Shown here one piece after another: positions 8,676 to 64,000 of a stretch of 64,000 nt of DNA. The notes beneath the pieces are model-generated. The model saw only the letters and a program-made list of their open reading frames with translations, was not told where the DNA came from and searched no databases. The DNA is taken from positions 62,001 to 126,000 of the forward strand of contig NW_003314376.1 of assembly GCF_000143415.4 (NCBI RefSeq), read 5' to 3'. This DNA comes from Selaginella moellendorffii. Its lineage: Eukaryota > Plantae > Lycopodiophyta. Every line of letters starts with the position of its first letter. Within the stretch, counting starts at the first letter, position 1. The position numbers were made by a program, and so were the translations under genes.

Positions 8676-8732
8676 GGGGAGATAGCTCAGATGGTAGAGC
8701 GCTCGCTTAGGGATCAATAACCAGCATCTCCA
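8676..8732 (+). pseudogene. tRNA-Ala pseudogene with a 16-nt internal deletion (arm A)
   Basis: GGGGAGATAGCTCAGATGGTAGAGCGCTCGCTTAG joined to GGATCAATAACCAGCATCTCCA; 3' anticodon arm and variable region missing. Confidence 0.8.
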
Positions 8733-26438: not shown

Positions 26439-28683
26439 TGTAAGGTTTGTAAATACATGTATGTATATATATGTATTACCCTAGCTAGGTAATACACTAA
26501 TTATAGTATTATAGCATATGAATTATCCATTTGGGACCAAATCTGATCCATTCATTTTTGTATATAAGCATGGGACTAAACCCTACTTAATATATCTATT
26601 CCTATATCCTAAGCACTCACATTAGTGGAGGTGAAAGGCATTGCAATTTATCCCTAAAGGGCAAAGCTTTTTGATAGTGCTTTGTTCTAGTGTTTGGGAT
26701 TGTGTTTTTTTATTCTTATTTCTTCATTTTATTATAGATTTAGATTTGTATTAGCTTTTTGCAAGATTTAGAATTCTAGTTATCGTTGTGCTTAGATTTG
26801 CTCTTTCTTCTGATCATTATTGCATTCTCTTCCTCTACCATACCATGCCGTCATCGATCAAAAAGTATGTCACTTGAGGTTGTTAATACTGCTCCGTTAG
26901 ATCTAACTTTTGGTGCTGTGGCATTTGATCATATTGGTATTGTGCCCATCCTTGATGTGTTATTTATTGGTATCCAACTTTTGTGGGATGTGATTATATG
27001 GCTTATCTTGTTCTCAATGTTCTACCATCTTCTATTGATGTGGAGTGTGATCATGATATTGATTTGTGCAATTTAATTCTTGGAGAATGTTTGAGGATCA
27101 AGTATGTGTAAAGACAATGTATACGAACTCGGGTGGATTCCAAAGTGTGATGATGAGCTTGATTATTATGGAGATAGTTTTGGAGATGAAGTGGAGATTT
27201 CACGAAGTAGGTGTCAATATTTCAATTTGTTATTTAATCCTTTCTCTTTCCCTTCTGCTCTTTCCCAACTATTTTTTAATTTTTCGGCCTGAGCCATCTT
27301 CTCAAGTTCTTAGTATTTCTTTTTCATTTGTAGTGTTTTTCTTTTTTTGGCTCATCAATCATTTATGACTCTCATGATTCTAATTCTCAGTCTAGTGTTG
27401 AGTTGAGTGTTTTCTATCCTCCTCATACTAATCTAGATATTGAGTGTATCCATGAAGTTGAGAATCTTGCTTTTGTTTCGTTAATAAAGTCTTTGATTAG
27501 TTCTGGTATTGAGTATTTCCCTATTCCAAGGGTTGAGTCACTTTGGCCAGAGTTTTGGGTTGAATGCATGTCCCCATTTGTGAGTGCCACTGAGAGTTTT
27601 TGCTTTACTATTGCTCATGAAGAGTTTATATATTCCCTTGAGAGTGTGAATGTTGTTATTGATTTTCCCATATTAAGTGTTGAGTTACGTTGAGTGGTGT
27701 GAATCTTTTGCTTATATTGTGGCTAAAATATTTTACGAAAGGAAATCCCATATTGACCAAGCTTTAAGCATATATTCATTTGATTTTCCATTTTTGCATT
27801 GCCAATTATTGCAAATTCCTCTTCCAATGCTTCTTTATTTACTTTTTCTTCTTTCACAATTGCTTTTACTCAATTTTTCTTGTTTTCTCCTTTTTGCCTT
27901 AACACTTCAAACTTTTTTTTCTTTAGAGGAGGGGGTAGAGGGGATAGATGGGAATTCGGCCCCGATGATGGAGTGAGGACGAGCGAATACGATAGTGGAA
28001 CGAGGACGAATGATATGGATTGTAGAGTGAGGACGAGCATAGCAAGTTTGAACGAAACATCCAGCTCCAATGTAATGAGGCCGAATAGATGCGATAGTGG
28101 AGTGAGGCCGGACATAGATGGCAGAGTGAGGACGAGCGCAGTAAATCCAAAAGGAGCTAGTGTTTCAAAACCATTTTTTCTTCGAGGAGGGGATAAGGAG
28201 AATGTGAAAGACGAATAGAGTGAGTCTAACCTCCCCAGTGCAAAGTTATAGTTGCGTGGTTGGTTTGAGCATTTGGGAGTTGCATAAAGAGTTGCAACTG
28301 GTTCATCAAGGTTCTATAGTGGGCTAATGATTATGCCATGGCTTTAGATTTTATTTCAATCATGGTTATCATCAACTTTATTGGTGGTTTTGTGCAAGTT
28401 TCAGATTATTGTGGTAATTTATAATTGCCCAACAGAAGCTCCAAATGTTCCACTTGACTTATTATTATCACCTTTTCATATTCCAAAAGGGAGGATGGTG
28501 TAAAGTTTGTAAATTCATATATGTATATATATATGTATTACCCTAGCTAGGTAATACATTAATTATAGTAGTATAACATATTGACTGTTCATTTGGGACT
28601 AAATCTGATCCATCCATTCTTGTATATAAGTAGGGGCCTAAACTTTCATTAATATACCTATTCCTTTATTCTGAGCACTCACA
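26439..28683 (+). mobile_element. Non-autonomous LTR element (NA) copy 2, uninterrupted
   Basis: LTRs 26439-26621 and 28499-28683; PBS-like TAGTGGAGGTG; PPT; ATAT flanks; empty AGAAT site near 28200. Confidence 0.85.
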
Positions 28684-34368: not shown

Positions 34369-36789
34369 TTAGCATAGAAACAAAAATGCAAAACTTTTCT
34401 CTTCACCATTCTAGTACTCATCCTTGGAGATTCTAGTGTCATTTTTTGTCACATTTCAAGAGTTTTTTGATTGATTCTAGAGCTCTAGCTATGGAGGAAA
34501 GTACTCCAGTTCTGCTGTGTAGTGTTAGTTATCCAAAACCAAAAGATATACCATGTATTTGGTTAGTTGGGTAAAATTGATGTATTTGGAGTTTTAAACT
34601 TTAGATGAAACAAGTTTTAAATTTGAAAGGAACACTTTACAACAATAACAATAAGGTAAACATTAGCAGTTTCTCAAGAAATTCTAAAAATGAGAAAAAA
34701 TAAATATGTGAAAATTACAAATGCATAATCAAATGAAGCAAAGGCAACATACTTAAGGGCATTATAGTTAAAGGCAAAAATTAAAAGTCTTAACATTAAA
34801 CAACAATACCATCATTACAAGTATATAATTTTCAATTATGGAATTGATACTATAAACAAGACGATTTACAACATCACAATAAACTAATTCCCATATATAT
34901 ACTTCCTACATTTGGTGGGTCTTTAATCCCTTATAAACATATTGTAAGGTTTGTAAATATATGTATGTATATATATGTATTACCCTAGTTAGGTAATACA
35001 CTAATTATAGTATTATAGCATATGAACTATCCATTTGGGACCAAATCTGATCCATTCATTTTTGTATATAAGCATGGGTCTAAACCCTAATTAATATACC
35101 ATATTAGTGGAGGTGAAAGGCACTGCAATTTATCCCTAAAGGGCAAAGCTTTTTGATAGTGCTTTGTTCTAGTGTTTGGGATTGTGCTTTTTTATTATTA
35201 TTTCTTCATTTTATTATAGATCTAGATTTGTATTAACTTTTTGCAAGATTTAGAATTCTAGCTATCGTTGTGCTTAGATTTGCTCTTTCTTCTTATCATC
35301 ATTGCATTCTCTTCCTCTACCATGCCATGCCGTCATCGATCAAAAAGTATGTCACTTGAGGCTGTTAATACTGCTCTGTTGGATCTAACTTTTGGTGCTG
35401 TGGCATGTGATCATATTGGTATTGTGCCCATCCTTGATGTGTTGTTTGTTGGTATCCAACTTTTGTGGGATGTGATTATATGGCTTATCCTATTCTTATG
35501 TTTCTACCATCTTCTATTGATGTGGAGTGTGATCATGATATTGATTGGTGTGCTATGGATAATGCAATTTAAATTCTTGGAGAATGTTTGAGGATCAAGT
35601 TTGTGTAAAGACAATGTGTACGAACTTGGGTGGATTCCAAGGTGTGATGATGAGCTTGATTATTATGGAAATAGTTTTGGAGATGAAGTGGAGGTTTTGC
35701 GAAGTAGGTGTCAATATTTCAATCTGTTATCTAATCCTTTCTCTTTCCCTTCTACTCTTTCCCAACTATTTTTTAATTTTTCAGCCTAAGCCACCTTCTC
35801 AAGTTCCTAGTATTTCTTCTTCATCTGTAATGTTTTCTTTTTTTGGCACGTCGATCATTTATGACTCTCATGATTCTAATTCTCAATCCAGTCTTGAGTT
35901 GAGTGTTTTCTATCCTCCTCATACTAATTTGGATATTGAGTGTATCCATGAAATTGAGAATCTTGCTTTTGTTTCATTGGTAAAGTCTTTGATTAGTTCT
36001 GGTATTGAGTATTTCCCTGTTCCAAGGGTTGAGTCACTTTGGCCAGAGTTTTGGGTTGAATGCATATCCCTACTTGTGAGTGCCACTGAGAGCCTTTACT
36101 TTACTATTGCTCATGAGGAGTTTATATATTCCCTTGAGAGTGTGAATGTTGTTATTGATTTTCCCATATCAAGTGTTAAGTTGTGTGTTGAGAAGGTTGA
36201 GTGGTGTGAATCTTTTGCTTATATTGTGGCTAAAATATTTTACAAAAGGAAATACCCTATTGACCAAGCTTTAAGCATATATTCTTTTGATTTTCCATTT
36301 TTGCATTGCCAATTACTACAAATTCCTCTTCCAATGCTTCTTTATTTACTTTTTCTTCTTTTACAATTGCTTTTACTCAATTTTTCTTGTTTTCTCCTTT
36401 TTGCCTTGACACTTCAAACTTTTTTTTCTTTAGAGGAGGGGGTAGAGGGGACGGATGGGAGTTCGGCCCCGATGATGGAGTGATGACGAGCGAATATAAT
36501 AGTGGAGCGAGGACGAATGATATGGATTGTGGAGTGAGGATGAGCATAGCGAGTTTGAACAAAACATCCAGCCCCTACATAATGAGGCCAAATAGATGCG
36601 ATAGTGGAGTGAGGCTGGACATAAATGACAGAGTGAGGACAAGCGCAGTAAGTCCAAAAGGAGCTAGTGTTTAAAAAAAAAAAAATTCTTCAAGGAGGGG
36701 ATAAGGAGAATTGTAAGGAACGGACTCCCCGAGATGTTGTAAGCTAAAGGATCCCCGAAAGCATGACCAAAATGACAAAGAGTTCATCG

Positions 36790-37085
36790 GATGGGACCTA
36801 GTCAAAGATTGAGTCCAAGACCGACTCTGAGACTGAGTTCGAGATAGAGTCCGGGATCGAGCTGAGGCCGAATCGGAGACCAAGATCGAGACCAAGTTCG
36901 AGACCGAGTTCGAGATAGAGTCCGAGATCCAAATCGGGTCCGAGACCGTGTCCGAGGTCGAGTCCGAAGTCGAGTCCGAGATTGGGTCCGAGATTGGGTC
37001 CGAGATTGGGTCCGAGATCAAGTCCGAGACTGAGTCCGAAGTCGGGTCCGAGATCGAGTCCAAGATTGAATCTGAGACTAAGTCC
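36790..37085. repeat. CpG-rich 6/12-bp tandem repeats (GAGTCC/GAGATC type) in the chromovirus LTR; also 49295-49520
   Basis: Repeated GTCCGAGATCGA and GTCCGAGACTGA units. Confidence 0.85.
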
Positions 37086-39538
37086 AAATACTAATACGGG
37101 TCAAGGGGTGAAAGCCCAAAGTGTGCGTCTCCCGGGGGGGGGGGGGGGCGGGGCTGTGGGGGGTTCCAAATTCCAAAAGTATTCCAAAAGGGATGGAAGT
37201 GGGGGGGTAGAGGTACCCATACCGGGCTGTTAGGCCACGGTGTTGCACCCAAGGCTTGGGATTTAAAGGGTCCCATGATCAAGTCTTGTTGTACCAAGGG
37301 GGGTTAGGAACCTGGAGGCTTGGTGTGCTTGGCTGCTTGTGCCTGCAGGGAGTGTAGCCGAACCTTAAGTCCAGTCTAACCCAGGGAGGGGGATTGGGAG
37401 AGATTTGGGAATCCGTGGATGGATGGCTAACGCTCCATTGCTCGTGTAGTGAGTAGCTGAAACCAAGTAGGACCAAGTAGGAGCTGGTACAATAGGTGGG
37501 AACCTTGGCGAGGGAACTTAGCACAAGTTAAGGCAATGTTGGTCGGATAGATGAGGTAAGCTGGCAAATTGGAAAGGAAAAATTTGTGGCTTACAATTTG
37601 GTATCGGAGCCTTTTCCTGAGTTCTAGCAAAGGATAGAGGCGGATTTCTGGGAGATGGCAAGGGCAGGGCATAAGAAAACCCAGGCGGAGACGGAACCTC
37701 CACCGGAGCTCGAGCCTACAGTCGAACAAGAGGGTATGGATGAGGAATCCTTGCATGAGGAGGACTCCAGTGAGGAAACTTCCAAACAGGAGTCTGGTGG
37801 TGAGGTTCGGTCGTCCAAGGCACGATTGGACGTTCTAGAAGGACAATTGGCACAGACCAATGCTCTGTTGGAGACTCTCGTACGCAAGCTAAAGCGTGAT
37901 GAGAAGCAGAAGAAAATGCGAAAGACTGTGGATGCTGGTAGTGCAGAAGGTGCGGACCCGTCGGTAGGGACTGAGGCAAAACCAGACAAGGTTGAACAGA
38001 CCGAAGTGGAATCAATCCCTCAGGCAGTTCCCAAGTACAAACCAAAGCCCTCACCGGTCTTCAAGGGAGTGAATGACTATAAGGTGGTGGAGGATTGGTT
38101 TTACGATATGGAGGATTACTTCCGAGCGTTGCGGTTACCAAGCTCGGAGAAGGTCCCATGTGCAAAACCATACTTGGCAGATAATGCCAAGTCTTGGTGG
38201 AAAACGACGGAGGCCAACGAAGCCACTTGGGAAATGATGAAGGCGAGGATCTGTGCGACTTATGTTCCTCCGAATGCTACTCTGCATCTAAGAGACGAGC
38301 TGAGTAGGCTGAAGCAGACCAGAACCATTCAAGAGTATGTGAATGGGTTTATGGCAAAGAGGATACTTGTCACAGACATGGGGGATATGGACGCTTTCCA
38401 TGCCTTCATATCGAGTTTGCAAACCTGAGCTCGCAGTGAGGTGATGCGTTGGAACCCAACCAACTACAAGGAAGCGTTGGATGCAGCCATCAAGGTGCAT
38501 TTCAATGATAACCTGCGAAAGGGGAACACGACGGGGTCGAGGTCCACGTTTAGCAAAGGGGCCAAACCAAGGGGAACGTATAGCAAAGGGAAATTCAAGA
38601 AGAGTTTCTCTAAGAATGAGTCCTCGGGGTTCTAGAAAGGCAAATCCGGCGGCCAGCGAGCAAGTACATGGGGGAGTCAAGCAAAAAGAGACAAACCCAT
38701 AGATAAGAAGGTCAAGTCATATAGTAACATGGGAAACAACGTATGCTACAACTGTGGTGAAGCGGGACACTTTTTGAGGGAATGTCCCTACCCAAAGAAG
38801 GCTAGAGCCAATATGGCCATCAAGTCGGGTGAAGTCCAAACTAAGGTATGTGATCCAGTCCCTAACTCAAAGTTACTCATTACACGAGCAACTTTGGTAG
38901 AAAGTCGTTTGCGACATCTACTAGCCCTCCGAGGGAAGCTCGGAGGTAACTTTGTTAAGATCCTTATTGACACGGGTGCATCGGATAATTTTGTGGTTGC
39001 AGACATAGTCCGGCAAGCCGGACGAATGGTGCAGTGGCTAGGCGAACCAAGGACTATAGAGTTTGTTCAAGGTAGCCAAAGCACCGATGAGGTACTTCGA
39101 CAAGCGAGAGTTGAAGTAGGGACATGGAAAGTGGACATGGATTTCACCGTGTTAGACATGGCGGGATTTGACGTGATCTTCAGAATGGATTAGTTCAATC
39201 GGTTCGTGGTAGCCCTGCATGGACAAGGTAGAAACCTTGTGGTACTGGCGAATGCCCAAGGAAAGAGATCTAGGGTGGAGGCCTAGGATCTAAAGGTAGG
39301 GCAAAGCAGGGCCAAAGATTCTTGTTTAAACCTGGTGTCCACGAGAGGACAACTCACTAAAGGAACTAAGGCGGCCTTTTTGTGCTTACTCTCAGTGAAG
39401 AGTGACAAAAAGACAAAAACGGAAGAAGTACCTTTAGTGATCCAACGGGTGTTGGATCAATTCCAAGATACCATGCCGGAGGAGTTACTGGCGGGGTTGC
39501 CCCCCGCACGACCGATAGAACATAAGATTGAGCTGGTC

Positions 39539-39700
39539 GAGGGTGCTGAGGCAATGGTTCATCCCCCCTATCGTTTGAACGAAAAAGAACTTGAGGGTGC
39601 TGAGGCGATGGTTCGTCCCCCCTATTGTTTGAACGAAAAAGAACTTGAGGGTGCTGAGGCGATGGTTCGTCCCCCCTATCATTTGAACGAAAAAGAACTC
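39539..39700 (+). repeat. In-frame 3 x 54-bp tandem repeat at the RT N-terminus
   Basis: EGAEAMV(H/R)PPY(R/C/H)LNEKEL three times, starting at 39539, 39593 and 39647. Confidence 0.95.
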
Positions 39701-41627
39701 GAGGAGCTCAAGTGCCAACTAAAGGAGTTGGTGGAAAAAGGGTATGTTAGGTTGAGCAAGTCGCCGTATGGGGTGCCGGTGTTATTTGTGAAAAAGAAAG
39801 ATGGATCTATGCGCATGTGCGTAGACTATCGGTTGCTCAACAAGTATACAAAGAAGAACAAATACCCTTTGCCAAGGATTGAGGACCTGTTCGATAGGTT
39901 GGGAAAGGCAAAATACTTCTCGAGGATTGACTTGAGGTCAGGATACTACTAGATCAGGGTAGCAGAGGAAGATGTCGAGAAGACAACCTGTCGAACTAGA
40001 TATGGGAGCTTTGAGTTTTTGGTGATGCCTTTTGGGCTGTGCAATGCGCCAGCAACGTTTTTGGCGTTGATAAACCATATCTTTGTACCCTATCTGGATC
40101 ACTTCGTGGTCGTCTATATCGACGACATCCTGATCTATAACGAGACGCTAGAGGATCATGCCGAACACTTGGCAAAGGTGTTTGAGAAGCTAAGGGAACA
40201 CAAGTTGTATGCTAAAGAGAGCAAATGTGACTTTGCTCAACAAGAGGTAAAGTTTCTCGGGCATGTGGTGGGCCAGGACAGGCTCAAGGTGGACCCAGAG
40301 AAGGTTCAAGCGATCCAGGAATGGGAGCGACCATGGAATGTACATGAGTTGAGGGCGTTCTTGGGGCTATGCAACTACTACCGAAAGTTTATCAGACACT
40401 ATTCGAGAGTAGCCCTACCCTTAACGGACCAAACAGGAAAGGGAATGATCGTATGGATAGCGGAATACAAGGCAGCATTTGTCCACCTCAAAGGGAAGTT
40501 GAGGAAGGCTCCCGTGTTGGCATTACTAGACTTTAGTAAGGACTTCGAGGTAGAAACGGATGCTTCAGACTTTGCGTTGGGTGCAGTTTTGAAGCAAGAC
40601 AACCATCCAGTAGCGTTCTTCTCGAAGAAGTTAGACAAGGCTCAACAGAAGTGACTTGCCCACGAGAAGGAATTGTTTGTGGTGGTCAAGGCACTCAAGG
40701 AGTGGCGACACTACCTTGGGAGACACTTCAAGGTTTACACGGACAATGTGGGAACGAAACACTTTTTGTCACAGCCCGACCTGAGAGGGAAATAGGATCA
40801 GTGGGCCAATGCCTTGGCCGAGTTTGATTGCGAGATTCTGTACAAGCCTAGGAAGAGCAACATCGTGGCAGATGTGCTAAGTCGAAAAGCGAGCTTGAGG
40901 TTGGCGATATCCAGTGCGACAGCAACCTTTTGGGACGATGTGCGGACAACATATGAGAATAATGGTCTAGCACAAGAAGTGTTGCTAAGGAATCTAGAGG
41001 CACGGGAAGCTCACCAGAGAGGTGAGCTGCCAACGGAAGAGAAAACAGGCTATACAGAACGCAATGGAGTCATCTATTATAAGCAAACGTGGGTGTATGT
41101 TCAAGAAGGGGAACTAAGGAAGGTAGCTTTAGAAGAGTGTCATGATGGACCTCTTGCGGGACACGGTGGAGTGCCCAAGATGATGGGCTTACTCAAAAGG
41201 AAGTACCATTGGCCAGATATGGCTAAGGACGTCCAAGACTATGTAAAGACATGTCCAACATGTCAGTAGATCAAAGCCGTGATTATGGCTAGTGGGGGCT
41301 TGTTGCAAAGCATCCCAATTCCAGATCGTCCGTGGAAATGTCTTACGATGGACTTTATCATGGGACTCCCCCTAAGCGAGGGGTTTGATGCGATATTCGT
41401 GGTGGTGGACCGATTTTTGAAGATGGCACATTTCATACCCACCACAACGGATGTGGATGCGGAAGGTGTGGCAAAGCTGTTCTTCGAACAAGTGGTTCGA
41501 GTGCGGGGAAGGCTAGAAGAGATTATCTCAGATCGAGATAAAATCTTCACTAGTAGGTTCTAGAGAACTCCCCTGGAACAGTATTGCACCAAGTTGAAAT
41601 TCAACACAGTCTATCACCCACAGACAG

Positions 41628-41674
41628 GTATGGGGTATTAAGTCAAGTTTGATGGCACTAACACTTCTTGATAG
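41628..41674 (+). other. Spliceosomal intron 1 in integrase (47 nt)
   Basis: CAG|GTATGG...CACTAAC...TTGATAG|AC; removal gives YHPQTDGQTERVN. Confidence 0.88.
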
Positions 41675-42376
41675 ACGGACAAACGGAAAGGGTGAATAGG
41701 CAGCTGGAGGATTATTTGTGATGATATATCTCGGGAGACTAGACCGATTGGGTAAGTCATTTGGGACTTAAGCTCTATTTCGTTAAAGTGAGAATTGTCA
41801 TTATCCTACTTGTAAAATAAGGTTTCCAAACCTTTATATAGTATATAAATATAACAAAATTCAACTGCATTGAGGCACATGCCATTTTATTTTAAACAAG
41901 GAAATGTCTACTCAATCACTTCTCCTCCTCCTGCCACTGCCTCACCTCTCTCTTCTCCTTGTCATCGTCATCCAATTTCTTTCCATCCTTTTAATATTGG
42001 CTCAGTTGCTCCGAGTCTAGGTGGAGCCCAAGTCCCCATTCAATCTTTACTTTCCCTTTATTAATAAAACAACTTCGTAAACTTCCAATAACATGCTGTA
42101 ACACTTCTAGTATAATGCAAATCCTCTCAAAGAATTGTCTTTTAATATTAATACAATGGCATGGAACCCCATGCCATAATAAGTTACATTTTTAAATAAA
42201 TACATACCATCTCAGACTGTTATTTTTTGCCTCCAACGCCTATACAATAATCTTGGAATTTCAACACTCTCCACACTATTAGGATTTAAACCCAATAGTA
42301 ATGCCATCTCTTCTCTAATACGTCCATGCTCATGTTTAGTGGTCAAGTCTGGAAACCTCGTCTCGCCCTTCATTGT

Positions 42377-43195
42377 TCAGTAGTAGGGGATCACGTCTGC
42401 GATGTCGGGTGTTACTGGACTTGCCAGCATCTTCTGCTTTAGTTTCTCCACCCACTCATCAAATACTAGCCTGTGGTTGTATTTGCTTTGGATGTCGATA
42501 CGGCTTACGTCGATTGTATATACATTGTTGGAATAGTAACAAGTACTATTATCTGCGACGATTTTTGCTGCCTCTTCTTGCTCTTTCTGCTCTTTGCGGC
42601 TCTTCTTTTTGGTGGGTGTAGTGTTCGAACCCGAGGCAATGGCATCACCGAGTAGCTTCTTTTTTGGAGCAGGAGAGTTGGACGTCGACTTGAGCTTGAC
42701 CACCCTTTTCTGCTTCAGGGTAGTTTCCAGATCGACCCCCTTTTCCTTCGCTTCGCGAACTGAAGGCACTCTCAACGGCTCAATGTTGGAATATAGTTTT
42801 TGAACATCGCCGTAGGTGAGGTCCGTGGATTCCATGTGATCTTCATAGACCCGTAGCGTCTTTGAAATTGTGGGCCTCCTGGACAACCTCTCCCTAGCTC
42901 CCTCTAGGAATTCCTCATAGCCGCTGCCCCCCTCCAGGAAGCCGCTAGGATGTGCAAGGTGGATCTTGAAGGCGGACGCTGTCTCTACCACAAGTGCCAG
43001 TCCATATTCTTGCATGGAACTGCATGGAGTGTCTGTCACTTGGATGAGGATCCCCATGCATTCTTTTCTCCCACCATCTGTGTTGTACAGCCTCAGATCC
43101 TCGCCTTCCATCCCGAAAGTCCAACTGGTGAGCTCCTCCCCCTTCTCTGCATCCACATTGACAGTGGCTGGAAGAAGAACGCAATTCCTCGCCTG
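42377..43195 (-). CDS. Transposon accessory ORF/exon of unknown function
   Basis: ~270 open codons after a TTTCTGAACAG acceptor-like site; basic KKK clusters; reading continues past the TGA towards a GTATGT donor. Confidence 0.5.
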   Translation of the reverse strand, partial: QARNCVLLPATVNVDAEKGEELTSWTFGMEGEDLRLYNTDGGRKECMGILIQVTDTPCSSMQEYGLALVVETASAFKIHLAHPSGFLEGGSGYEEFLEGARERLSRRPTISKTLRVYEDHMESTDLTYGDVQKLYSNIEPLRVPSVREAKEKGVDLETTLKQKRVVKLKSTSNSPAPKKKLLGDAIASGSNTTPTKKKSRKEQKEQEEAAKIVADNSTCYYSNNVYTIDVSRIDIQSKYNHRLVFDEWVEKLKQKMLASPVTPDIADVIPYY

Positions 43196-44044
43196 TTCAG
43201 AAATGCACAACAATTAGAGCTGACAGATGAAAAGCTAGCAGCTGGAAATAACGTGAGGCCACACGCCATTCACCACTGCATCAGATGTCTTGAGGCTGCA
43301 TCCTAAGATGGCGTGAGGCTACACGCCATCTGTAACCGGACTGCACTCGAGAGCCCAATCGGTGCATGCCAATGTTGCTACTGAATGGCATGTGGCCTCA
43401 TGCCATTTTCTACTTGGCCTAAAAGACTTACCATTTGAAGCCGAATGGAGGCGTGACAATCGAGGCCGGACTCGCTGGCGAATGTGCACTGTGTGTGCAG
43501 CGGATCGTAGCAGCAAGGCTACTCTGCCACTTACAGTTGGAGACTGGCGCTGAAATCTCTCGGGACGCCAAGTGGGCTGCGTGTGGGTGGCGGAGTAGGC
43601 GGCAGAGTTGGCGGCGAAGTTACAAACTGGGTGTGTCTTGAAGTGGACGCCGATGCACACGAGCGCGATGCGAGCGCGAGTGTGATGCAAGCGCAAGTGG
43701 ACGCCGATGCACACGAGAAACCTGTAGAGAAGGTAGATGAGCGCGAATGTGAGCGTGATCGCGAGTGCGAGCGCGAGTACGAAGCAAAATGCAAAACCTA
43801 ACCTCACACGCGTGAAATATCACGACGGTTGGTAATCCCGCAACGTCATCATTCCTCGGACTTGGGCACCACCATTAATTTCTGGATCGCCGCGCGCATG
43901 CATGCACGTGAAATCCAAAAGAAATCCGCAACGTCATCATTCCTCAGACTACATGCACGCGAAATCCAAAAGAAAGATCATGATTGGGATATCATTTAAT
44001 ACCCTCGCTATATTTATACCATGCATGATTGGATATTCCAAAGC

Positions 44045-45420
44045 ATCTTGTATTTCCAAAAATGCCAGATGTTCAGCTAAATAAAGAATGGTATACAATG
44101 TCCTTCTTGATGACCCTGCAAAGAAGCATCTCGATCGGACACCACATGAGACCACACGAGCTTTACAATGTTTCAGGGGCATTTGCCATAGATCCGACCG
44201 TTATTTTGCTCCAAGATTCTACAGTTTTGTGTGCATTGACCTTTCCATCGACACTGCAAAGGGACATCACAATCAGATGTGGGATCACAAGAAACCAACT
44301 TCACTAACTCTGGTTTCACCAAGATCTACATAAGGAGTTATGAAATGAAAGGACCCTCTTTATTGAAATGTGTTTATGGTCCTAGGGGCATTGTGACATA
44401 TCAAAGGATTTTGCATCAAGTTCTGTATTTGCATGTTTATCAAGCTACTGAATTGCTAAACCCTAAACCCTAAATATGTGGCAAATGCTGCGTGAAGAAA
44501 GATGCCCTTTTTGGGCAAATGCTGTAAAAGGCAGATGCCGAGCAGTTACACGGCAAATAATCTTCGCGTGGATCGCTGACATGGCATGGCAAAGTTCGAA
44601 TCACTGACATGGCACAGCTGGATCGAGGCAAGGACATGATGTGAAAAAGTTCAACGTTTGATAGCAAAGTCTAGAATCTACTCAGTTTGAAATTTGTCAG
44701 AGGAATTATAAAATCTGGTTTGTCAGAGGATTTGATGTGATGTTCAAGCGTGTGGGCTCATGCAATTTTGATCCCAAAAAATGCACCAAAAAATGCTCGG
44801 CGCCATCTGGCGTTATCTCTTGAATGGCGTGGGGCCGCATGCCATTTTCAGGGGCACATAGGAGTATATTCCTAGAATATTCTGACACGTGCTAGATATT
44901 TTTGGAGTTTTTTGGAGATCCAACCGTTAGATCGCAACTAGATTTTATAGAATGGTATACAATGTCTTTCTTAATGACCCTGCAAAGAAGCATCTCGATC
45001 GGACACCACATGAGACCACACGAGCCTTACAATGTTTCAAGGGCATTTGCCATAGATCCGACCGTTATTTTGCTCCAAGATTCTACAGTTTGGTGTGCAT
45101 TGACCTTTCCATCGACACTACAAAGGGACATCACAATCAGATGCGGGATCACAAGAAACCAACTTCACTAACTCTGGTTTCACCAAGATCTACGTAAGGA
45201 GTTATGAAATAAAAGGACCCTCTCTATTGAAATGTGTTTATGGTCCTAGGGGCATTGTGACATATCAAAGGATTTTGCATCAAGTTCTGTATTTGCATGT
45301 TTATCAAGCTACTGAATTGCTAAACCCTAAACCCTAAACCCTAAACATGTGGCAAATGTTGTGTGAAGAAAGATGCCCTTTCTGGGCAAATGCTGTAAGA
45401 TGCAGATGCCGAGCAGATGT
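44045..45420 (+). repeat. Internal direct duplication (~450 bp; ~44085-44545 and ~44950-45415), each copy with (CCCTAAA)2-3
   Basis: Near-identical blocks beginning AGAATGGTATACAATGTC. Confidence 0.85.
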
Positions 45421-46640
45421 ATCTCAGGCTAGCGAAGGGGACAAACAAAAACTAGCTATAAACATGACGGGATGCAAATAGATTACTAGGCTGGTCCTGC
45501 GAAAATCAAAAACCATAATTGAAAACATTGAAAATGCAAAAAGAAAGGTTTATAATATTTTTGAATTTTAAGCAACCAAAGGAATGTAAGTAGGGCATGT
45601 GTTTGTAAGTTTAAAAATGCCTCAACCACTTAAATTCCCAAGTAAATAAAGTTGTTTCTATTTTTGGTACAGGTAAACTTTATAACGTGTGGGCTCATGC
45701 AATTTTGAACCCAAAAATGCACCAAAAAATGCTCGACTAGCATTATTCTTTGAATGGCGTGTGGCCTTATATTGCCATAAATGGACGTACACACACAGCA
45801 TAATTATTCCTTTACACGGCGAATAATCTTGGCGCGGATCGCTGACATGGCATGGCAAAGTTCGAATCACTGACATGGCACAGCTGGATCGAGGCAAGGA
45901 CATGATGTGACAAAGTTCAACCTCCGACAGCAAAGTCTAGAAGCTACTCAGTTTGAAATTTGTCAGAGGAATCATAAGATCTGGTTTGTCAGAGGATTTG
46001 ATGTGACGTTCAAGCGTGTGTTATTTTTGAATTCTCGAACTCATTCCTAGGTTTATCATTTTTGTGCGCCGTGTTCTTGGTTCCGCTGAGCGCAGTGAGC
46101 GCTGCTTGTGTAAGCGGCGTTGTGAGCTATGGTTTATGCGTCTACGAGCGGTTGCGGCATTGCGAGCGCCATTGCGAGCGGCAGTTTATGCGAGTGGCAG
46201 TTTGTGCGAGCGGCGCTATGAGCAATTGCAGTGTTGCGAGCGGCGCTACGAGTAGTTGCGGTGTTGCGAGCGGCACTGTCTTTGGTGTGGCTACCGCTTC
46301 CTCTTGATATTCGGCACTTGTGCTTCCTGGTATGTTCACCATGGAATGGCTTAGGACCACATTTAGAAATGGCATGAGGCCACATGCCATCTTGGGCCCT
46401 TGCAATTTTATGGCTAGCGTATTGTCATGTATGTTTTTACTTGCTTGCAACTGTGTGTATATCAAGATGGCATGAGGCCTCATGCCAATTTTGTGAATGC
46501 AAAATTTCACGTGGGTGTCAATAGCATGTTTGAATAATGGCATGTGGCCTCATGCTATTGAGGTTGTTTGGTATGTTATGATTTAGGCCATTCTCCAATC
46601 ATTTTTTGTATGGTCTTAACTTCTTTTCTGCACTTTTAGA

Positions 46641-47552
46641 ATGGCCTCTGCAAGTGCGACACATGTTCCCTCCGTGGATCTTAAGAACCATGCTACATGG
46701 ATTCAGGCAAAGGTGTTTCTAAACAACCCCGAGGGGGAGGTGGTAGCTGAGGGTTTAGCCACAGTTGTCGATCCAAGAGATGCGGTTGCTAATCAAGAAT
46801 TGGGCTGGGATGATATTGGAGTTGCGATTTTAGAGGTTGTTGACATAGAAGAAAACAGTCTGACTATTGGAAGCATTGTGCGGTGGAAATTGAGGCACTT
46901 AATGTTTGAGAATGTGAAGGATTCACAATCAAACACCATTACAACTGATGACAGAACATCTCTTCATGGGAAAAGAAAGTACACCTTCCTAAAGTGCAGC
47001 CAAAGGGATCTGAGCAACGAACCGAAAAGGCAGAAAATGGCGATGGAGGTTCGAATGGTCTCGACAGTTGTTTGTTGCAAGAGGAGGTGCTGTCAACATG
47101 CTGATTGGGATGCTATTGAAGAGGAGAGAGCAAGATAAAAGACATTGTCCTGGAAGGCAGCTCACAATTTTGTGTATGAGGCATTACGGTCATCTGTTGA
47201 TGCTTCAGAACATCAGGTGGGGGGCATGGTCTTCCAGAGGGGTTTGGTCTGCATGAAGGCATGGAGAATCATTTATGGAGTCCCTCGAACCACATTCTAC
47301 AGAATCAAAACTGAGTTCGAGGAACAAAGGGTTCAACAGGCAGTCCATGGGAATGACGGTACTCATAAAACCAGGGGTCATGTTGTATATGGAGAGGCAA
47401 TCTTCAAGAGGTTTGTCGAGACATGTAACAAGCAGCACTTTTTTCCCTTTGCACTAGTATATCTTAATACCGGTCTGAGAAATAGAATGGCATGTGCCCT
47501 CAGGCCTTTTACTAAATCACCTTTGAAAGAAATGCAAGCCTCTATGTTGTAA
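46641..47552 (+). pseudogene. Truncated transposase N-terminus (Tnp1/En-Spm-like domain plus a Cys-rich Sola-like region)
   Basis: VVAEG..VDP..ELG..IGSIVRW, then CCKRRCC, VCMKAWRIIYGV and HGNDG; one internal TAA that is TAC in the second copy; no catalytic domain seen. Confidence 0.55.
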
Positions 47553-48377
47553 AAAAAAGGTACTAGAGAAATTCCTTAATAATATGAATGTTATTTAGTT
47601 TCATGAAAATACACTAAGGGTCAAATGAGTTAAATGACTTCTCCAGACTAGCAATGCCTCTTGCTACACCTTCACAATTAGATTCGTTAGAAAAAGATAA
47701 CATTGAATAATATCTAAATGTTCTCACCATTAAGTTATATGTCTGGCTAATAGGAATGACGTTCATCTTGGAAAGCTCACCACATGCTCAATGAACAAAC
47801 AAATAGTGTGTGCGCGCATGCCATCGCTCTTCTTTAGCTTTAGATTCGGCTTGTTCACCTTGACAATGAGATTTATTATACAACTAGATGGACTCAGTCT
47901 GGACACAAAGTCACCGCGCTAGTCACTATGCCCCAGATATGTCTAGCCCCTAGACAAAAAACATATAATTTCACGTCATTTTCAAATACTTGAAAATTTG
48001 TACCTAGTCCCATTTTACTGAATAAATCCCACTTTAACGAAATAGAGCATACTTGCAGAAATGTGTTATAACAACTCACCACATTCGAGTATCGGGGTGA
48101 GTCCATGGGAAGTCATCAATGGGTGAGCTATTAAAGGTCCCGTGGAACTTAGCGTGGCCAAGTATCATGGAGAGTTACCTGCAGTGGAGGCATTCACGGC
48201 GGAAAGACTCAACATTTGGAATCTAGTGACGGATTCCTTGGAACGGGCGCAACAAAGACAAACCAAGTACGCGAACCAGAAGCGCCGGGATATAAAGTTC
48301 TAAGCTGGGGAGAAGGTGTGGCTGAACACCAAGAACCTCAGACTACCAAGTGGGATCAGCTGAAAGTTGACCCAAAG

Positions 48378-48429
48378 GTAAAAATGCATGTATTCCTGTA
48401 AATGAATTGATCTGGAGTTCCTTAAGCAG
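48378..48429 (+). other. Spliceosomal intron 2 in integrase (52 nt)
   Basis: AAG|GTAAAA...CCTTAAGCAG|GT; removal gives KLTQRFAGPY and brings the chromodomain into frame. Confidence 0.88.
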
Positions 48430-48913
48430 GTTCGCGGGGCCTTATGAGATTGAGGCACAAATCGGTAAAGTGGCTTACTGTCTTCGACTTCCTCGAGAGA
48501 TGGGGAAGATGCACCTAGTGTTCCACGTAAACTTACTCAAGCTGTACTTTGAGGATCCGCTTCGCAAGGACCAAGTAAGACCTTTACCTGAGGTTATCCA
48601 AGGGGAAGAGGAATACGAAGTCGAGGCCATCCTCAATGTGCGCAAGAGCAAGCGACAAGGAAGTGAGGTGAGAGAGTTCCATGTGAAGTGGAAAGGATTT
48701 CCACACTGGGAAGCAACATGGGAACCGGAGGAGAACCTAGCGAACGCGCAAGATTTAGTGGAGGAATTTCTGCAAGGCAAAACTCGATGTACTTATGCAA
48801 AGTTCAATTAAAGTATCAATTTGCAAAGTTGAGCAATAGCATATGTTGAGACCCGAAGGCATGCCGAAGGTAAGCTAATTAGCACGGGTTAGCTAGGTCG
48901 ACTAGGCGTAGAG

Positions 48914-49040
48914 CACTACACCTGACTCCCCGTGGGGATGTCGAATCCGTAGACGTATTCTACGGAGGTTGGGTTCGAGTCCCAACCCCCTAGTAAAGCA
49001 AAGCTGGGTTCAAGTCCCGACCCCATACTAGGGCGTGGTG
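48914..49040 (+). other. Putative structured RNA element with two tRNA-like T-arms in the chromovirus 3' UTR
   Basis: Hairpins TCCGTAGA/TCTACGGA and GGTTGGG-TTCGAGT-CCCAACC, a second GGG-TTCAAGT-CCC, and enclosing stems CTAGTA/TACTAG and CACTAC/GTGGTG. Confidence 0.5.
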
Positions 49041-51549
49041 AGTTGAGGGGTATAGGGACACTTATATTCTGTTGTCATGGGCTCTAGGCCGGGGAGGCTA
49101 ACTTAGGCACACCGCTAAGTGGGGGGATGCCCCCGGAGACATGGTCAACAAGATGTAGGATAAAAAAAGACGTTCGATGTGGGCATCGAACTTCTTCTAT
49201 GGGTGGTAGAGTTGTAAGGAACCAACTCCCCGAGATATCGTAAGCGAAAGGATCTCCGAAAGCATGACCGAAACAACAAAGAGTTCATCGGATGGGACCG
49301 AGTCGAAGATCGAGTCCAAGACTGACTCTGAGACCGAGTTCGAGATAGAGTCCAAGATCGAGCCAAGGCCGAATCGGAGACCGAGTTCGAGACTGAGATC
49401 CAAATCGGGTCCGAGACTGAGTCCGAGGTCAAGTCCGAAGTCGAGTCCGAGATCGGGTCCGAGATCGAGTCCAAGACTGAGTCCAAAGTCGGGTCCGAGA
49501 TCAAATCTAAGACTAAGTCCAAATACTAATACGGGTCAAGGGGTGAAAGCCCAAAGCGTGCGTCTCCCAGGGGGGGGGGCTGCAAAGAGTTCCAAAAGTA
49601 TAGTAGGGATAGTGAGGTCCAGGAACCAGTCTTGAAGGAACTCTCCAGTGGTGCTTCCAAATTGAGTTGAGGTTGAGACTGGGGCTGAGGGGCCTTGGGT
49701 GGGAGTGAGCATGGGCTTGGGTGGTGCCAGACGGGCCACCCAGGGAAGTGCTCAAGAGCAGCTCCCACTCCCGAAAGGGAAACCGACTACGGTGCTCCCG
49801 GCTCATGTGGAGTGGTGCCCCACTTGAGTACCTTATGGCTCATTGGTCCTTGCCCTTCCTAGGGGCTTGGGCTTTCCCTTCGGGATGGAAGTGGGGGGGT
49901 AGAGGTACCCATACCGAGCCGTTAGGCCATGGTGTTTCGCCCCGATGTCCCGAAGTAAGTGTTGCACCCAAGGCTTGGGATTTAAAGGGTCCCATGATCA
50001 AGTCTTGTTGTACCAAGTTAGGAACCTGGAGGCTTGGTGTGCTTCGCTACTTGTGCTTGCAGGGAATGTAGCCGAACCTTAAGTCCAGTCTAACCCGGGG
50101 AGGGGGATTGGGAGAGATTTGGGAATCCGTGGATGGATGGCTAACGCTCCGTTGCTCGTGTAGTGAGTAGCTGAAACCAAGTAAGACCAAGTAGGAGCTG
50201 ATACAAAAGGCAGGAACCTTGGCGAGGGAACTTATCACAATCCAAGGTAGTGTTGGTCTGATAGACGAGGTAAGCTGGCAAATTGGAAAGGAAAAATTTA
50301 TGGCTTACAAAAATGTGAAAGACGAATGGAGTGAGTTTGACCTCCCCAGTGCAAAATTATAATTGTGTGGTTGGTTTGAGCATTTGGGAGTTGCATAAAG
50401 AGTTGCAACTAGTTCAACAAGGTTCTATAGTGGGCTAATGATTATGCCATGGCTTTAAATTTTATTTCAGTCATGGTTAGCAGCAACTTTATTGGTGGTT
50501 TTGTGCAAGTTTTAAATTCTTGTGGTAATTTATAATTGCCCAACAGAAGCTCCAGATGTTCCACCTGAGTTATTATTATCACCTTTTCATATTCCAAAAG
50601 GGAGGATGGTGTAAAGTTTGTAAATACATATATGTATATATATGTATTACCCTAACTAGGTAATACACTAATTATAGTAGTATAATATATCGACTGTCTA
50701 TTTGGGACTAAATCTGATCTATCCATTCTTGTATATAAGTAGGGGCCTAAACTTTAATTAATATATCTATTCCTTTATTCTAAGCACTCAAAATATATAT
50801 TAAGTTTTACATTCTTGAGGTCAGTAGGAAGGCATTGATTTGCTTGTTACAACTTACAAGTTCCAAAGGCATTAGTTTGGTTTTGGTACAAGATCCAGGC
50901 AGGACAACATGCTTGGAATACAAGGAATGGAGAGAGGCCACCTTGAAACAAAATCCATCACCTAGTAAGCTTTTAATAATTGGTTTCTTTGGATTGATCA
51001 AGCATGCCCAATATCTCTATTTGTTTGTTCAGAAAAGCAAATGCACTTAAATTTTGAAAGAATGTGAAGGTGACGTTTCCAATTTTGAACTTTTGTAAGA
51101 AAAAAAAGTTACTCATTTTAAAAGACTTTTAGCTAAACAAATATGTAGCTAAATATGTTTACTAACAAACAAAAATACAAATTAATATTAGTGTTTAGAC
51201 AATTTGATTGGTACAGAAGACCATACCAGTTGAATTATATTGTGTTGGTTTTACCAATTGCTTTACTCATCCTCTTGCATAACACTGCAAAGCAAAACAC
51301 TATCCCTTTTCCTCCTCCTCTTGTGATTACTATTACTATAATATGTATTATTATTATAAGCATTAGTAACATTCTTCATGGTTGCCTGCAGATGCAGCTT
51401 CTTGGCTATAGAAACTTGCTGGAGATGGTGGGCTTTCCAAAGCTCATCTCTCAAAAGGCTCTTGAAATGCAACAAAAGCTGCCAGAATCTCCAAGGATGA
51501 GTATTAGAATGGTGAAGAGAAAAGTTTAGCATTTTTGTTTCTTTGCTAA

Positions 51550-58023: not shown

Positions 58024-60290
58024 TGTGAGGGCCAAGTGTACGGCTACGATGCCGTATACTAATATTAGTGTAGTGGGATTTTGGTAACCGTCAGATTGCT
58101 TTTAATTTGGACCACTTGCTCTTATATATAAGCTAGGGTCTTTTGGGCTAATGGATATGCACATTTCTATATTCCCTTTCCATATCCTAAGCACTCACAT
58201 TGGTGGAGATGAGGGGCACTTTTGATTGTCCCTAAGGAGTGCTTAAATTTGGGATTTTGGTTTAGATCTAGCTTTTGCATTGTCTAGATCTAGCTTTTTC
58301 CATTTCCTTTCTTTTGTTCTTTCTTTTTAGGATTTTGGTTTGGATCTAGCTTTTTGCATTGTTTAGATCTACCATTTGCTTCTAACTTTTTGTCATTTCT
58401 CTTCTTTTGCTCTTTCTTTTTCATTCGACAAGGGCAAGGACGTGGTCGTGGCTGTGATGTTCGCTGTTGGGCATGTGATGAAGTTGGTCATATCTCGAGT
58501 TTAAGTTGTAGTCATTGCGGGTGGTGCCGAGTCAAGTTTTTGACCTCATTCTTGGTATGGATTGGTTGCAGCGCAATCATGCTAAGTGTGATTTTGAAGC
58601 TTCTCCCCCTTGTCTCATATTTCCTTATGTTTCATCCATTCCTCTCACTTCTGTACCTCTTTGTCCCTTTATTTTTACCTCTGCTTCCATTACTTTTGTT
58701 TCCCCACTATTTCCTCCTATGTTTCCATCTTGTTCTGCTCTTCCCTTTTCCGATCCCTCCGACGATCTTTGTGTTGCAGCGGTGGACCGGCTCATGAAGG
58801 AGTATTCTGATCTCTTTGAATTTGACTTATCGTCTGGGGCCAAGATTGCCACACGTCATCCAATTCCAACCAGGGATGCTTGTCCAATCAAGGTTCCCGT
58901 TCGTTGTCGGTCACCCAAGGAGATCAAGATTTTACGTGCAAATGTCAAGGAGATGTTGGAGAAGGGTGTTATTCGGAAGTCGTGGAGTCCTTGGGCATGT
59001 GAACCTCATCTTGTGACGAAGCCTGATGGGAGTATTCGTTTCTGCATCGACTATCGTCCATTAAACAAAGAGACGATCCCAGATGTGTATCCTCTTCCTC
59101 ACACTGCTGATCTCTTGGATCGTCTGGGGTGAAGTTGTTAGTTCACCAAGCTAGATCTTGCTTCTGGGTACTGGCAAGTACCGATAGCCGAAGAAGATAT
59201 TCATAAGACTGCTTTTCATACACTATTTAGTTTGTACGAATTCTTGGTGATGCCGTTTGGTTTGAACAATGCTCCAGCAACCTTCCAGCGGATGATGGAC
59301 AAAGTTCTTTGCGATATGCCGGAGGTGACTGTTGACTTCATTGATGATGTCTTGTTCCACTCGGAGGGGACATGGGAGGAACGTTTGTGATGTTTGTAAA
59401 GTGTTGGATCGGCTACACGATGTTGGTTTAAAGCTGAAGCAGACAAAGTGCGTGTTTGGGTCCAAGGATACAACTTATCTTCGGTACTATATTTTTCGTG
59501 AGGGTTTGCAAGTTGATCCTGACAAACTTGTGGTTGTTCTAAAGTTCCCTACTCCGAAGTGTGTGAATGATGTGTAGCGCTTCTTGGGCAAGGTGCAGTA
59601 TCTCGGTCATTTTGTGGATCATCTTTCTAATCGCATTGCACCATTGCGAGCATTGCTGAAGTCGTCAACATCATCTTTCATCTGGTCTTCAGATTATAAG
59701 CGGGCGTTCGAGGATCTCAAAGAGCTATTGATGACTCCTCCGATTTTGGCATATCCTGACTACATTCGACCTTTTATTTTACACGTGGATGCTTCTAACA
59801 TTGGTCTTGGAGGTGTGTTGATGCAAGAGAGCTCGAGTGTGCCTAGTTAGCACCATCCCATTGCATATATAAGCCATACGTTACAACCAGCGGAAATGAA
59901 CTACTCTACGACAGAGAAGGAGTGTTTAGCAGCAGTTTGGGGTTTCGAGAAACTTCATGCATATTTACATGGTTCTCAGACGTTACTTGAAGGTGATCAT
60001 GCTGTTGTTACTTCATTATTGAAGTGGAAGAACCTGGTTGGTCGTACTGCTCGATGGGCTTTGAAGCTTCAGATCTATGATTTTGATGTTGTTCATCGCC
60101 CAGGGAGTTCTTTGGCTAATGCTCATGCCCTTTCTTGAGCTCCTCTTCCTTCTACATTCTCTTCTTATGTTTCCGATGAGCCTGTTGTTCCAGCCTCTGT
60201 GAATTTTCTACACGAGGATTTTGTGCCGTCGGCGGTTGCTGTACTTAACATTCAGTATCCACAAGGCACAAAGCAAGATCTACCTTCTCT
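58024..60290 (+). mobile_element. G1 gypsy copy 2, internally deleted and 3'-truncated
   Basis: 5' LTR 58024-58199; PBS TGGTGGAGATG at 58201-58211; most of gag and the protease start deleted; RT and RNase H remnants. Confidence 0.9.
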
Positions 60291-61179: not shown

Positions 61180-64000
61180 ATGCTCTATTTCGTTAAAGTG
61201 GGATTTATTCAGTAAAATGGGACTAGGTACAAATTTTCAAGTATTTGAAAATGACGTGAAATTATATGTTTTTTGTCTAGGGGCTAGACATATCTGGGGC
61301 ATAGTGACTAGCGCGGTGACTTTGTGTCCAGACTGAGTCCATCTGGTTGTATAATAAATCTCATTGTCAAGGTGAACAAGCCGAATCTGAAGCTAAAGAA
61401 GAGCGATGGCATGCGCGCACACACTATTTGTTTGTTCATTGAGCGTGTGGTGAGCTTTCCAAGATGAACGTCATTCCTATTAGCCAGACATATAACTTAA
61501 TGGTGAGAACATTTAGATATTATTCAATGTTATCTTTTTCTAACGAATCTAATTGTGAAGGTGTAGCAAGAGGCATTGCTAGTCTGGAGAAGTCATTTAA
61601 CTCATTTGACCCTTAGTGTATTTTCATGAAACTAAATAACATTCATATTATTAAGGAATTTCTCTAGTACCTTTTTTTTACAACATAGAGGCTTGCATTT
61701 CTTTCAAAGGTGATTTAGTAAAAGGCCTGAGGGCACATGCCATTCTATTTCTCAAACCGGTATTAAGATATACTAGTGCAAAGGGAAAAAAGTGCTGCTC
61801 GCTACATGTCTCGACAAACCTCTTGAAGATTGCCTCTCCATATACAACATGACCCCTAGTTTTGTGAGTACCGTTGTTCCCATGGACTGCCTGTTGAACC
61901 CTTTGTTCCTCGAACTCAGTTTTGATTCTGTAGAATGTGGTTCGAGGGACTCCATAAATGATTCTCCATGCCTTCATGCAGACCAAACCCCTCTGGAAGA
62001 CCATGCCCCCCACCTGATGTTCTAAAGCATCAACAGATGACCGTAATGCTTCATACACAAAATTCCGAGTTGCCTTCCAGGACAATGTCTTGTATCTTGC
62101 TCTCTCCTCTTCAATAGCATCCCAATCAGCATGTTGACAGCACCTCCTCTTGCAACAAGCAACTGTCGAGACCATTCGAACCTCCATCGCCATTTTCTAC
62201 CTTTTTCGGTTCGTTGCTCAGATCCCTTTGGCTACGCTTTAGGAAGGTGTACTTTCTTTTCCCATGAAGAGATGTTCTGTCATCAGTTGTAGTGGTGTTT
62301 GATTGTGAATCCTTCACATTCTCAAACACTAAGTGCCTCAATTTCCACCGCACAATGCTTCCAATAGTCAGACTGTTTTCTTCTGTGTCAATAACCTCTA
62401 AAATCGCAACTCCAATATCATCTCAGCCCAATTCTTGATTAGCAACCGCATCTCTTGGATCGACAACTGTGGCTAAGCCCTCAGCTACCACCTCCCCCTC
62501 GGGGTTGTTTAGAAACACCTTTGCCTGAATCCATGTAGCACAGTTCTTAAGATCCACGGAGGGAACATGCGTCGTACTTGCGGAGGCCATTCTGAAAGTG
62601 CAGAAAAGAAGTTAAGACCATACAAAAAATAATTGGAGAATGGCCTAAATCATAACATACCAAACAACCTCAATAGCATGAGGCCACTTGCCATTATTCA
62701 AACATGCTATTGACACCCACGTGAAATTTCGCATTCACAAAATTGGCATGAGCCCTCATGCCATTAGTGGTACCACTAATCGCATGAGGCCTCAAAATGT
62801 AAACCTTTTCCCCAACCCTGAAGGCCATTCTGAAAGTGCAAAAAAGAAGTTAAGACCATACAAAAAATGNNNNNNNNNNNNNNNNNNNNNNNNNNNNNNN
62901 NNNNNNNNNNNNNNNNNNNNNNNNNNNNNNNNNNNNNNNNNNNNNNNNNNNNNNNNNNNNNNNNNNNNNTGGCCTAAATCATAACATACCAAATAGCATG
63001 AGGCCTCATGCCATCTTGATATACACACAGCTGCAGGCAAGTAAAAACATACATGACAATACGCTAGCCATGAAATTGCAAGGGCCCAAGATGGCATGTG
63101 GCCTTATGCCATTTCTAAATGTGGTCCTAAGCCATTCCATGGTGAACATACCAGGAAGCACAAGTGCCGAATATCAAGAGGAAGCGGTAGCCACACCAAA
63201 GACAGTGCTGCTCGCAACACCGCAACTACTCATAGCGCCGCTCGCAACACCGCAACTGCTCGTAGCGCCGCTCGCACAAACTGCCATTCGCATAAACTGC
63301 CGCTTGCAATGGCGCTCGCAATGCCGCAACCGCTCGTAGACACATAAACCACAGCTCACAACACCGCTTACACAAGCAGCGCTCACTACGCTCAGCGGAA
63401 CCAAGAACACGGCGCACAATAATGATAGACCTAGGAATGAGTTCGAGAATTCAAAAATAACACACGTTTGAACGTCACATCAAATCCTCTGACAAACTAG
63501 ATCTTATGATTCCTCTGACAAATTTCAAACTGAGTAGCTTCTAGACTTTGCTGTCGGAGGTTGAACTTTGTCACATCATGTCCTTGCCTCGATCCAGCTG
63601 TGCCATGTCAGTGATTCGAACTTTGCCATACCATATCAGCGATCCACGTCAAGATTATTCGCCGTGTAAAGGAATAATTATGCTGTGTGTGTACGTCCAT
63701 TTATGGCAATATAAGGCCACACGCCATTCAAAGAATAATGCTAGTCGAGCATTTTTTGGTGCATTTTTGGGTTCAAAATTGCATGAGCCCACACGCTATA
63801 AAGTTTACCTGTACCAAAAATAGAAACAACTTTATTTACTTGGGAATTTAAGTGGTTGAGGCATTTTTAAACTTACAAACACATGCTCTACTTACATTCC
63901 TTTGGTTGCTTAAAATTCAAAAATATTATAAACCTTTCTTTTTGCATTTTCAATGTTTTCAATTATGGTTTTTGATTTTCGCAGGACCAGCCTAGTAATC
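61180..64000 (-). mobile_element. Second copy of the Sola-like DNA transposon (runs off the window)
   Basis: Starts with the TIR ATGCTCTATTTCGTTAAAGTG; reverse complement of ~45480-48050; flank ATAT. Confidence 0.88.
62870..62969. other. Assembly gap (100 N)
   Basis: N run. Confidence 1.

Follow-up and report, generated by a model that had tools for sequence, protein, structure and literature searches.

Plant long terminal repeat (LTR) retrotransposons generally lack introns, and passages of a 2025 review name Ogre and EVADE as exceptions (PMC12786077). Sense-strand introns are normally lost when an LTR retrotransposon is copied, a loss on which the classic retrotransposition assay relies (PMC12786077). 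In Ogre, a Ty3/gypsy element of the Tat lineage described from pea and Medicago, splicing is needed to translate reverse transcriptase (RT), RNase H (RH) and integrase (PMC6317226). BARE keeps separate translated and packaged RNA pools, and only the packaged pool is unspliced and carries the R region (PMC3735527). An Arabidopsis study reports that conserved short-gag splicing, as in Ty1-copia elements, was not seen in Ty3/gypsy elements (PMC5580714). Cer1 makes an accessory export protein by splicing (PMC10309623). Here we describe an LTR retrotransposon of Selaginella moellendorffii that spans positions 36712–50309 of a 64,000-nt stretch of contig NW_003314376.1 (contig positions 62,001 to 126,000, forward strand). 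This whole stretch is called the window, and all coordinates refer to it. The element is of the chromodomain-bearing Ty3/gypsy type (chromovirus), and its integrase is interrupted by two short intron-like segments that are common to essentially all family copies seen in DNA. The family likely obtains complete integrase only from doubly spliced RNA, with unspliced RNA as the likely template for new copies of its genome. The parts of the element are as follows.

36707–36711, plus strand: left target-site duplication AGAAT (the right copy, 50310–50314, reads AAAAT)
36712–37595, plus strand: 5′ LTR, TG...CA, 884 bp
37599–37611, plus strand: tRNA-type primer-binding site, TGGTATCGGAGCC
37655–41627, plus strand: exon 1, with Gag, zinc knuckle, protease, RT, RNase H, integrase HHCC and the first two catalytic Asp residues
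41628–41674, plus strand: intron 1, 47 nt, phase 1, with the second Asp upstream and the catalytic Glu downstream
41675–41769, plus strand: first part of exon 2, with the catalytic Glu helix of the integrase core
41770–48050, no strand assigned: nested DNA transposon-like element with 25-bp terminal inverted repeats and a 4-bp duplication
48055–48377, plus strand: second part of exon 2, with the end of the core and the linker
48378–48429, plus strand: intron 2, 52 nt, phase 2, directly upstream of the GPY/F motif and within the SH3-like domain
48430–48811, plus strand: exon 3, with the remaining SH3-like domain and the chromodomain (48614–48772), stop-free to its end
49199–49212, plus strand: weak purine-rich tract upstream of the 3′ LTR
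49213–50309, plus strand: 3′ LTR, TG...CA, 1097 bp

Apart from the nested DNA transposon, introns 1 and 2 are the sole frameshifts in the polyprotein. Both segments lie where the initial annotation had put them and have GT-AG ends, and the Gag-Pol frame that it traced from 37655 to 41627 is indeed free of frameshifts, but it contains 9 premature stops that the annotation did not state. Pfam matches run in the order Gag, zinc knuckle, protease, RT, RNase H, integrase HHCC and integrase core in a single frame from 37655, and the C-terminal matches are to an SH3-like domain (PF24626, E 3.6e-12) and a chromodomain (PF00385, E 3.4e-17). Intron 1 begins with GTATGG, ends with TAG and has a branch-like ACTAAC within; intron 2 begins with GTAAAA and ends with CAG. 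GT...YAG ends together with a frame restored on removal are as expected of U2-type spliceosomal introns for both segments. The chance that two arbitrary segments both carry GT..AG ends is 2.3e-4, allowing 3 and 5 equivalent cuts. The T content is 34% in intron 1 and 33% in intron 2, versus 20% in the flanks, and this excess too is as expected of U2-type introns. Short introns are typical of this host, with a Selaginella median of 59 bp against 100–238 bp in the other species of Table 3 of PMC3729371. A putative host intron in the window itself (2222–2269, minus strand) has GTAAGT...TTTCAG ends.

Removal of the segments restores the integrase exactly, as had been claimed. With X written at junction 1, 35 residues separate the second catalytic Asp from the Glu, which is the canonical D(35)E spacing. 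Through homologue P0160, the Glu column after junction 1 can be matched to the integrase chains of Ty3 and foamy virus; by the usual numbering of the catalytic residues we take the aligned Glu to be the catalytic one. The exon ends at junction 1 align gap-free against 24 of 26 relatives (the remaining two are without the region), and those at junction 2 against 17 of the 26 (eight do not span it and one is gapped). Retention of intron 1 leads to a stop at 41639, four codons in and upstream of the catalytic Glu. Retention of intron 2 leads to a stop at 48379, which leaves the SH3-like domain incomplete and loses the chromodomain. Because either segment, if retained, stops translation, complete integrase needs both of them out, in agreement with the initial annotation. 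Its placement of both introns in the integrase core is right for intron 1, which lies in the Asp-Glu interval, but not for intron 2, which splits a Tf2-type SH3 domain outside the catalytic core.

Elements that act as introns are known from the introner literature (PMC12130899). The two introns here show no resemblance to each other or to other window DNA, with best matches of 11–13 nt, so no introner source is found. The introns also fold no better than shuffled sequences (z of 0.53 and 0.60, or −1.41 and −0.87 with flanks) and thus give no sign of a structured packaging signal.

The presence of the introns across the family is assessed with contigs of public sequencing runs matched to each intron region, covering relatives at least 80% alike. 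In DNA run X1, which may be the sample that the window came from, 18,160 contigs fit 40000–41800, with 2691 at 99% identity or more, 6214 at 95–99%, 6957 at 90–95% and 2298 below 90%. Their summed depth in the two intron-1 bins is 807k and 943k, within the range of 181k–1353k over all 30 bins. Over the intron-2 region there are 3,741 contigs, and depth at intron 2 is 687k–927k, within the overall range of 264k–1099k. The 47-nt skip of intron 1 is absent from the best 15 of 40 joints in X1, and the 52-nt skip of intron 2 is absent from all four joints among the 3,741 contigs; all of these joints are other deletions. Contigs that diverge by 17–19% from the window copy bridge each intron, one of them with 47 differences in 275 nt at intron 1, and in a second sample (X4) one contig crosses intron 2 gap-free with 19 differences. 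At position 41672, the third-last base of the intron-1 acceptor, 752,388 of 784,823 depth belongs to the commoner CAG acceptor. The nested DNA element serves as a control for a private insertion, and 31 contigs exit at its border (41769) into the downstream integrase. The segments are thus inherited family-wide rather than private to this copy, as the initial annotation had predicted, since contigs cross both at flank depth and at up to 17–19% divergence. Summed contig depth is not copy number, and contigs lose rare variants; still, the summed depth exceeds that of single rare contigs (about 110–290) by a factor of thousands, which points to hundreds or thousands of copies.

RNA evidence comes from two runs, X23 and X24, of which about 12% each was read. 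The family is nearly silent in both, with one read per run over the 1801 nt of the intron-1 stretch. Joints are listed only when supported by at least three reads, and the single X23 read is reconstructed from bin depths, where unique whole-number solutions give 4 + 40 + 35 + 61 + 1 = 141 bases over 41582–41769. This read omits 41626–41672, the leftmost of three cuts equivalent to intron 1. It covers 41610 and 41724 but not 41672, and it has the family-majority letter at all six listed sites that it covers. Its first mate is on the minus strand, as expected of sense RNA if the library is stranded. The X24 read ends upstream of intron 1. A further run, X20, gives no contigs on the element stretch, which has no bearing on expression.

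Several observations weigh against the reading that the family makes complete integrase from spliced RNA and copies unspliced RNA. Intron 2 has no clear branch-site motif to be seen, and its donor looks weak. The junction reads called for by the initial annotation are found for intron 1 in one X23 read, which could also stem from a rare genomic copy without the intron; for intron 2 they are not found, as none of five RNA reads from X23 and X24 spans it. Three of these five reads, from both runs and located at 48320–48402, enter intron 2, stop at 48402 and continue into unlike sequence. Their first mate is on the strand opposite to that of the spliced X23 read, and they are likely from a transcribed truncated copy elsewhere. 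In DNA, 25 of the 40 intron-1 joints lie outside the best 15 and rare variants are lost from contigs, so a few copies may be without the introns. Only one insertion site is directly seen, and the copies examined include no intact one. Intron 2 is presumed to be spliced in RNA as well.

We favor, as the probable explanation, a division of labor between two forms of one transcript. Unspliced RNA would be the template for reverse transcription, as inheritance of the introns suggests, and could code for everything from Gag through RNase H along with a truncated integrase. Doubly spliced mRNA would be the sole source of full integrase. Because the intron-less, single-frame form is absent from the listed joints, spliced RNA would mostly be excluded from copying, as otherwise intron-less copies would have spread. 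By analogy, the likeliest route may be two RNA pools as in BARE, one spliced and translated and the other unspliced and packaged. As an outcome, a single gag-pol frame would yield less integrase than Gag, protease and RT, and this need not be regulated. A stronger version is that host splicing is a selected two-key control on integration, in which genome RNA would give particles and complementary DNA (cDNA) but no integrase, doubly spliced mRNA alone would supply integrase, and RNAs differing by 99 bases within pol would be told apart strictly enough to keep intron-less copies from spreading; this we regard as tentative and on balance doubtful.

A more specific form, which we consider unlikely, is that splicing is a regulated switch, specific to tissue, germline or stress, that licenses integration in some cells. 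The third intron of the P element, to which the initial annotation likened its proposed switch, is a precedent for tissue-restricted splicing. Such a switch would suit two separate introns that must both come out, the clean early stops on retention, and the keeping of both introns in copies up to 19% diverged. However, intron retention is explicable without regulation, and the libraries read are two near-silent ones with one read each over 1801 nt.

Another reading, which is quite improbable, is that insertion of the segments disabled a non-autonomous subfamily, which would borrow integrase from a rare intron-less helper that is also the source of the junction read. The window copy is dead, contigs can hide rare variants, relatives less than 80% alike fall outside the comparison, and a single read cannot separate spliced RNA from an intron-less gene, all of which leave room for a helper. 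On the other hand, both segments are bounded by GT and AG precisely where excision restores the frame (p about 2e-4), both are T-rich, most copies have the CAG acceptor, and no intron-less junction is listed among the 3,741 contigs at intron 2. The junction read carries the letter of the intron-bearing majority at all six listed sites, so any helper would have to be almost identical to those copies and would most simply have arisen through splicing. A further reading, that one genomic copy gained the introns and that they then multiplied by duplication of DNA without passing through RNA, is very unlikely. The tandem array in the window, the duplicated LTR piece at 6602–7445 and the sight of only one insertion site speak for it. 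Against it, 18,160 contigs fall in all identity classes from below 90% to above 99%, the summed depth (though no copy number) is far above that of rare single contigs, and an LTR pair, a target duplication and an empty site belong to the window copy itself.

Comparison with relatives bears on the origin of the introns. In a tree of RT-RH, built from 41 proteins hand-picked out of 120, none labelled by clade and without a named reference sequence, the element groups with seed-plant proteins in a clade of 24 rows (95/87) that stands weakly (83/55) beside a Riccia-containing group. The best identity to relatives in RT-RH is 60%. We tentatively read these groups as Galadriel and Galahad, in part after PMC2864245 and PMC6317226. 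Protein searches show no close family member: the best full-length identity is about 50–52%, and the others are at most 50%, at most 51% (retroelement matches) and at most 55%. At site 1, 143 of 151 HP[QE][TS] motifs in 240 proteins continue into [DN]GQ, and the other eight are truncations, substitutions or an unrelated motif. At site 2, the conserved stretch upstream of the GPY/F motif is kept in 109 of 115 proteins (186 examined). Short proteins among the matches show no tendency to end at the intron-1 site. Predicted introns could be concealed in some NCBI gene models, but many of the protein matches come from assembly-level open reading frame (ORF) calls. Of the intron-less sister families that the initial annotation proposed to look for, the protein collections show distant relatives (60% or less) with uninterrupted integrase but no close family member. 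Because distant relatives read straight through both sites, the introns were likely gained within the lineage of this element. Among viral contigs, relatives with the same introns number zero by protein and zero by two patterns, and metagenome contigs, with the CAC-His version of the pattern, show no second intron-bearing lineage. Two metagenome pattern matches are chance, one in a long non-retroelement frame and the other in a bacterial-looking signalling locus (names by eye); both are rejected as relatives since the element matches neither of them by tblastn or blastn.

Among described systems, Ogre is alike in having a genome-retained sense intron in the polyprotein region that is spliced from a subset of transcripts to give the whole polyprotein (PMC6317226). 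It differs in that its intron or spacer lies between protease and RT and it has no chromodomain, whereas here the frame is unbroken from protease to RT and a chromodomain is present; identity with Ogre is rejected on these two grounds. Unlike in Ogre, there are two introns of 47–52 nt within integrase, and RT and RNase H are translatable from unspliced RNA. Splicing as a gate to RT-RH-integrase is already known from Ogre, and what is new is the location of the introns in integrase and the presence of two tiny introns. BARE1 of barley and EVADE/Ty1-copia share a small intron in a single gag-pol frame and the keeping of spliced RNA from copying (PMC3735527, PMC5580714). There splicing removes pol expression and boosts Gag, whereas here it creates complete integrase. 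Penelope-like elements also keep introns through retrotransposition, but they are non-LTR elements with a GIY-YIG nuclease, and their characterized introns are in the 5′ untranslated region or the N-terminal part; excerpts of the same paper attribute the retention to their unusual mechanism (PMC8557442). Galadriel/Galahad chromoviruses of vascular and non-seed plants, clade names that in part follow PMC2864245 and PMC6317226, share the domain order, the chromodomain and the tRNA-type primer site. They differ in having at most 60% RT-RH identity, and those that span the intron sites are uninterrupted. The Tcn1 clade is self-priming and without a tRNA primer site (PMC6317226), and membership is rejected because the element has a tRNA-type site. 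No published intron inside a retrotransposon integrase came up in the full-text literature searched, and subscription journals, Repbase or supplements could hold prior annotation.

The copy in the window is dead. It has 15 premature stops (9 upstream of intron 1 and 3 plus 3 between the introns) and carries the nested DNA element of 6.3 kb. Its insertion is of integrase type, because the target duplication is 5 bp long and another tandem unit of the window preserves the empty site, where AGAAT occurs once (28199–28203). The 5′ and 3′ LTRs are identical in 741 of 813 aligned columns (Kimura two-parameter distance 0.095). Both LTRs contain degenerate arrays of short GAGTCC/GAGATC-like units (36820–37090 and 49320–49520), and one block of the 3′ LTR is absent from the 5′ LTR. 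The primer-binding site is presumably that of initiator tRNA-Met. In exon 1, immediately upstream of the RT domain, a 54-nt unit is triplicated in frame at 39539–39704.

The nested DNA element is flanked by the duplication ACTT (41766–41769 and 48051–48054), has an internal 471-bp repeat and is absent from other family copies. Its frames at 42377–43213 (minus strand) and 46641–47441 (plus strand) have no Pfam match. A second copy, 97–98% identical and reversed, lies at 61181–64000 and includes an assembly gap of 100 N at 62870–62969. Positions 1–57700 of the window are a tandem array of five to six units of 8–12 kb with 92–98% identity, some pieces inverted. The units contain broken PPR-like fragments (by eye) and a His/Pro-rich frame; at about 8676–8710 a tandem unit resembles, by eye, the 5′ half of a tRNA-Ala gene. 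The flanking host frames have no informative Pfam match, only sub-threshold DUF350 on four repeat frames. At 6602–7445, in another unit, a truncated LTR is followed by the same right flank and AGAAT and is a duplicate of the same insertion. Two other decayed Ty3/gypsy elements lie at about 14370–19377 and 58294–60135; the former has short LTRs and an uninterrupted integrase.

If complete integrase is made from doubly spliced RNA, a high-copy family with two ordinary-looking integrase introns must sort spliced from unspliced RNA without a large structural difference between them. The choice of genome RNA by a retroelement then becomes directly testable with a 99-base marker. The family would also present a case of intron gain inside a retroelement, and it would add to frameshifting and short-gag splicing a third means by which one gag-pol frame can give its proteins in set ratios. 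ORF-based annotation will label such families integrase-defective.

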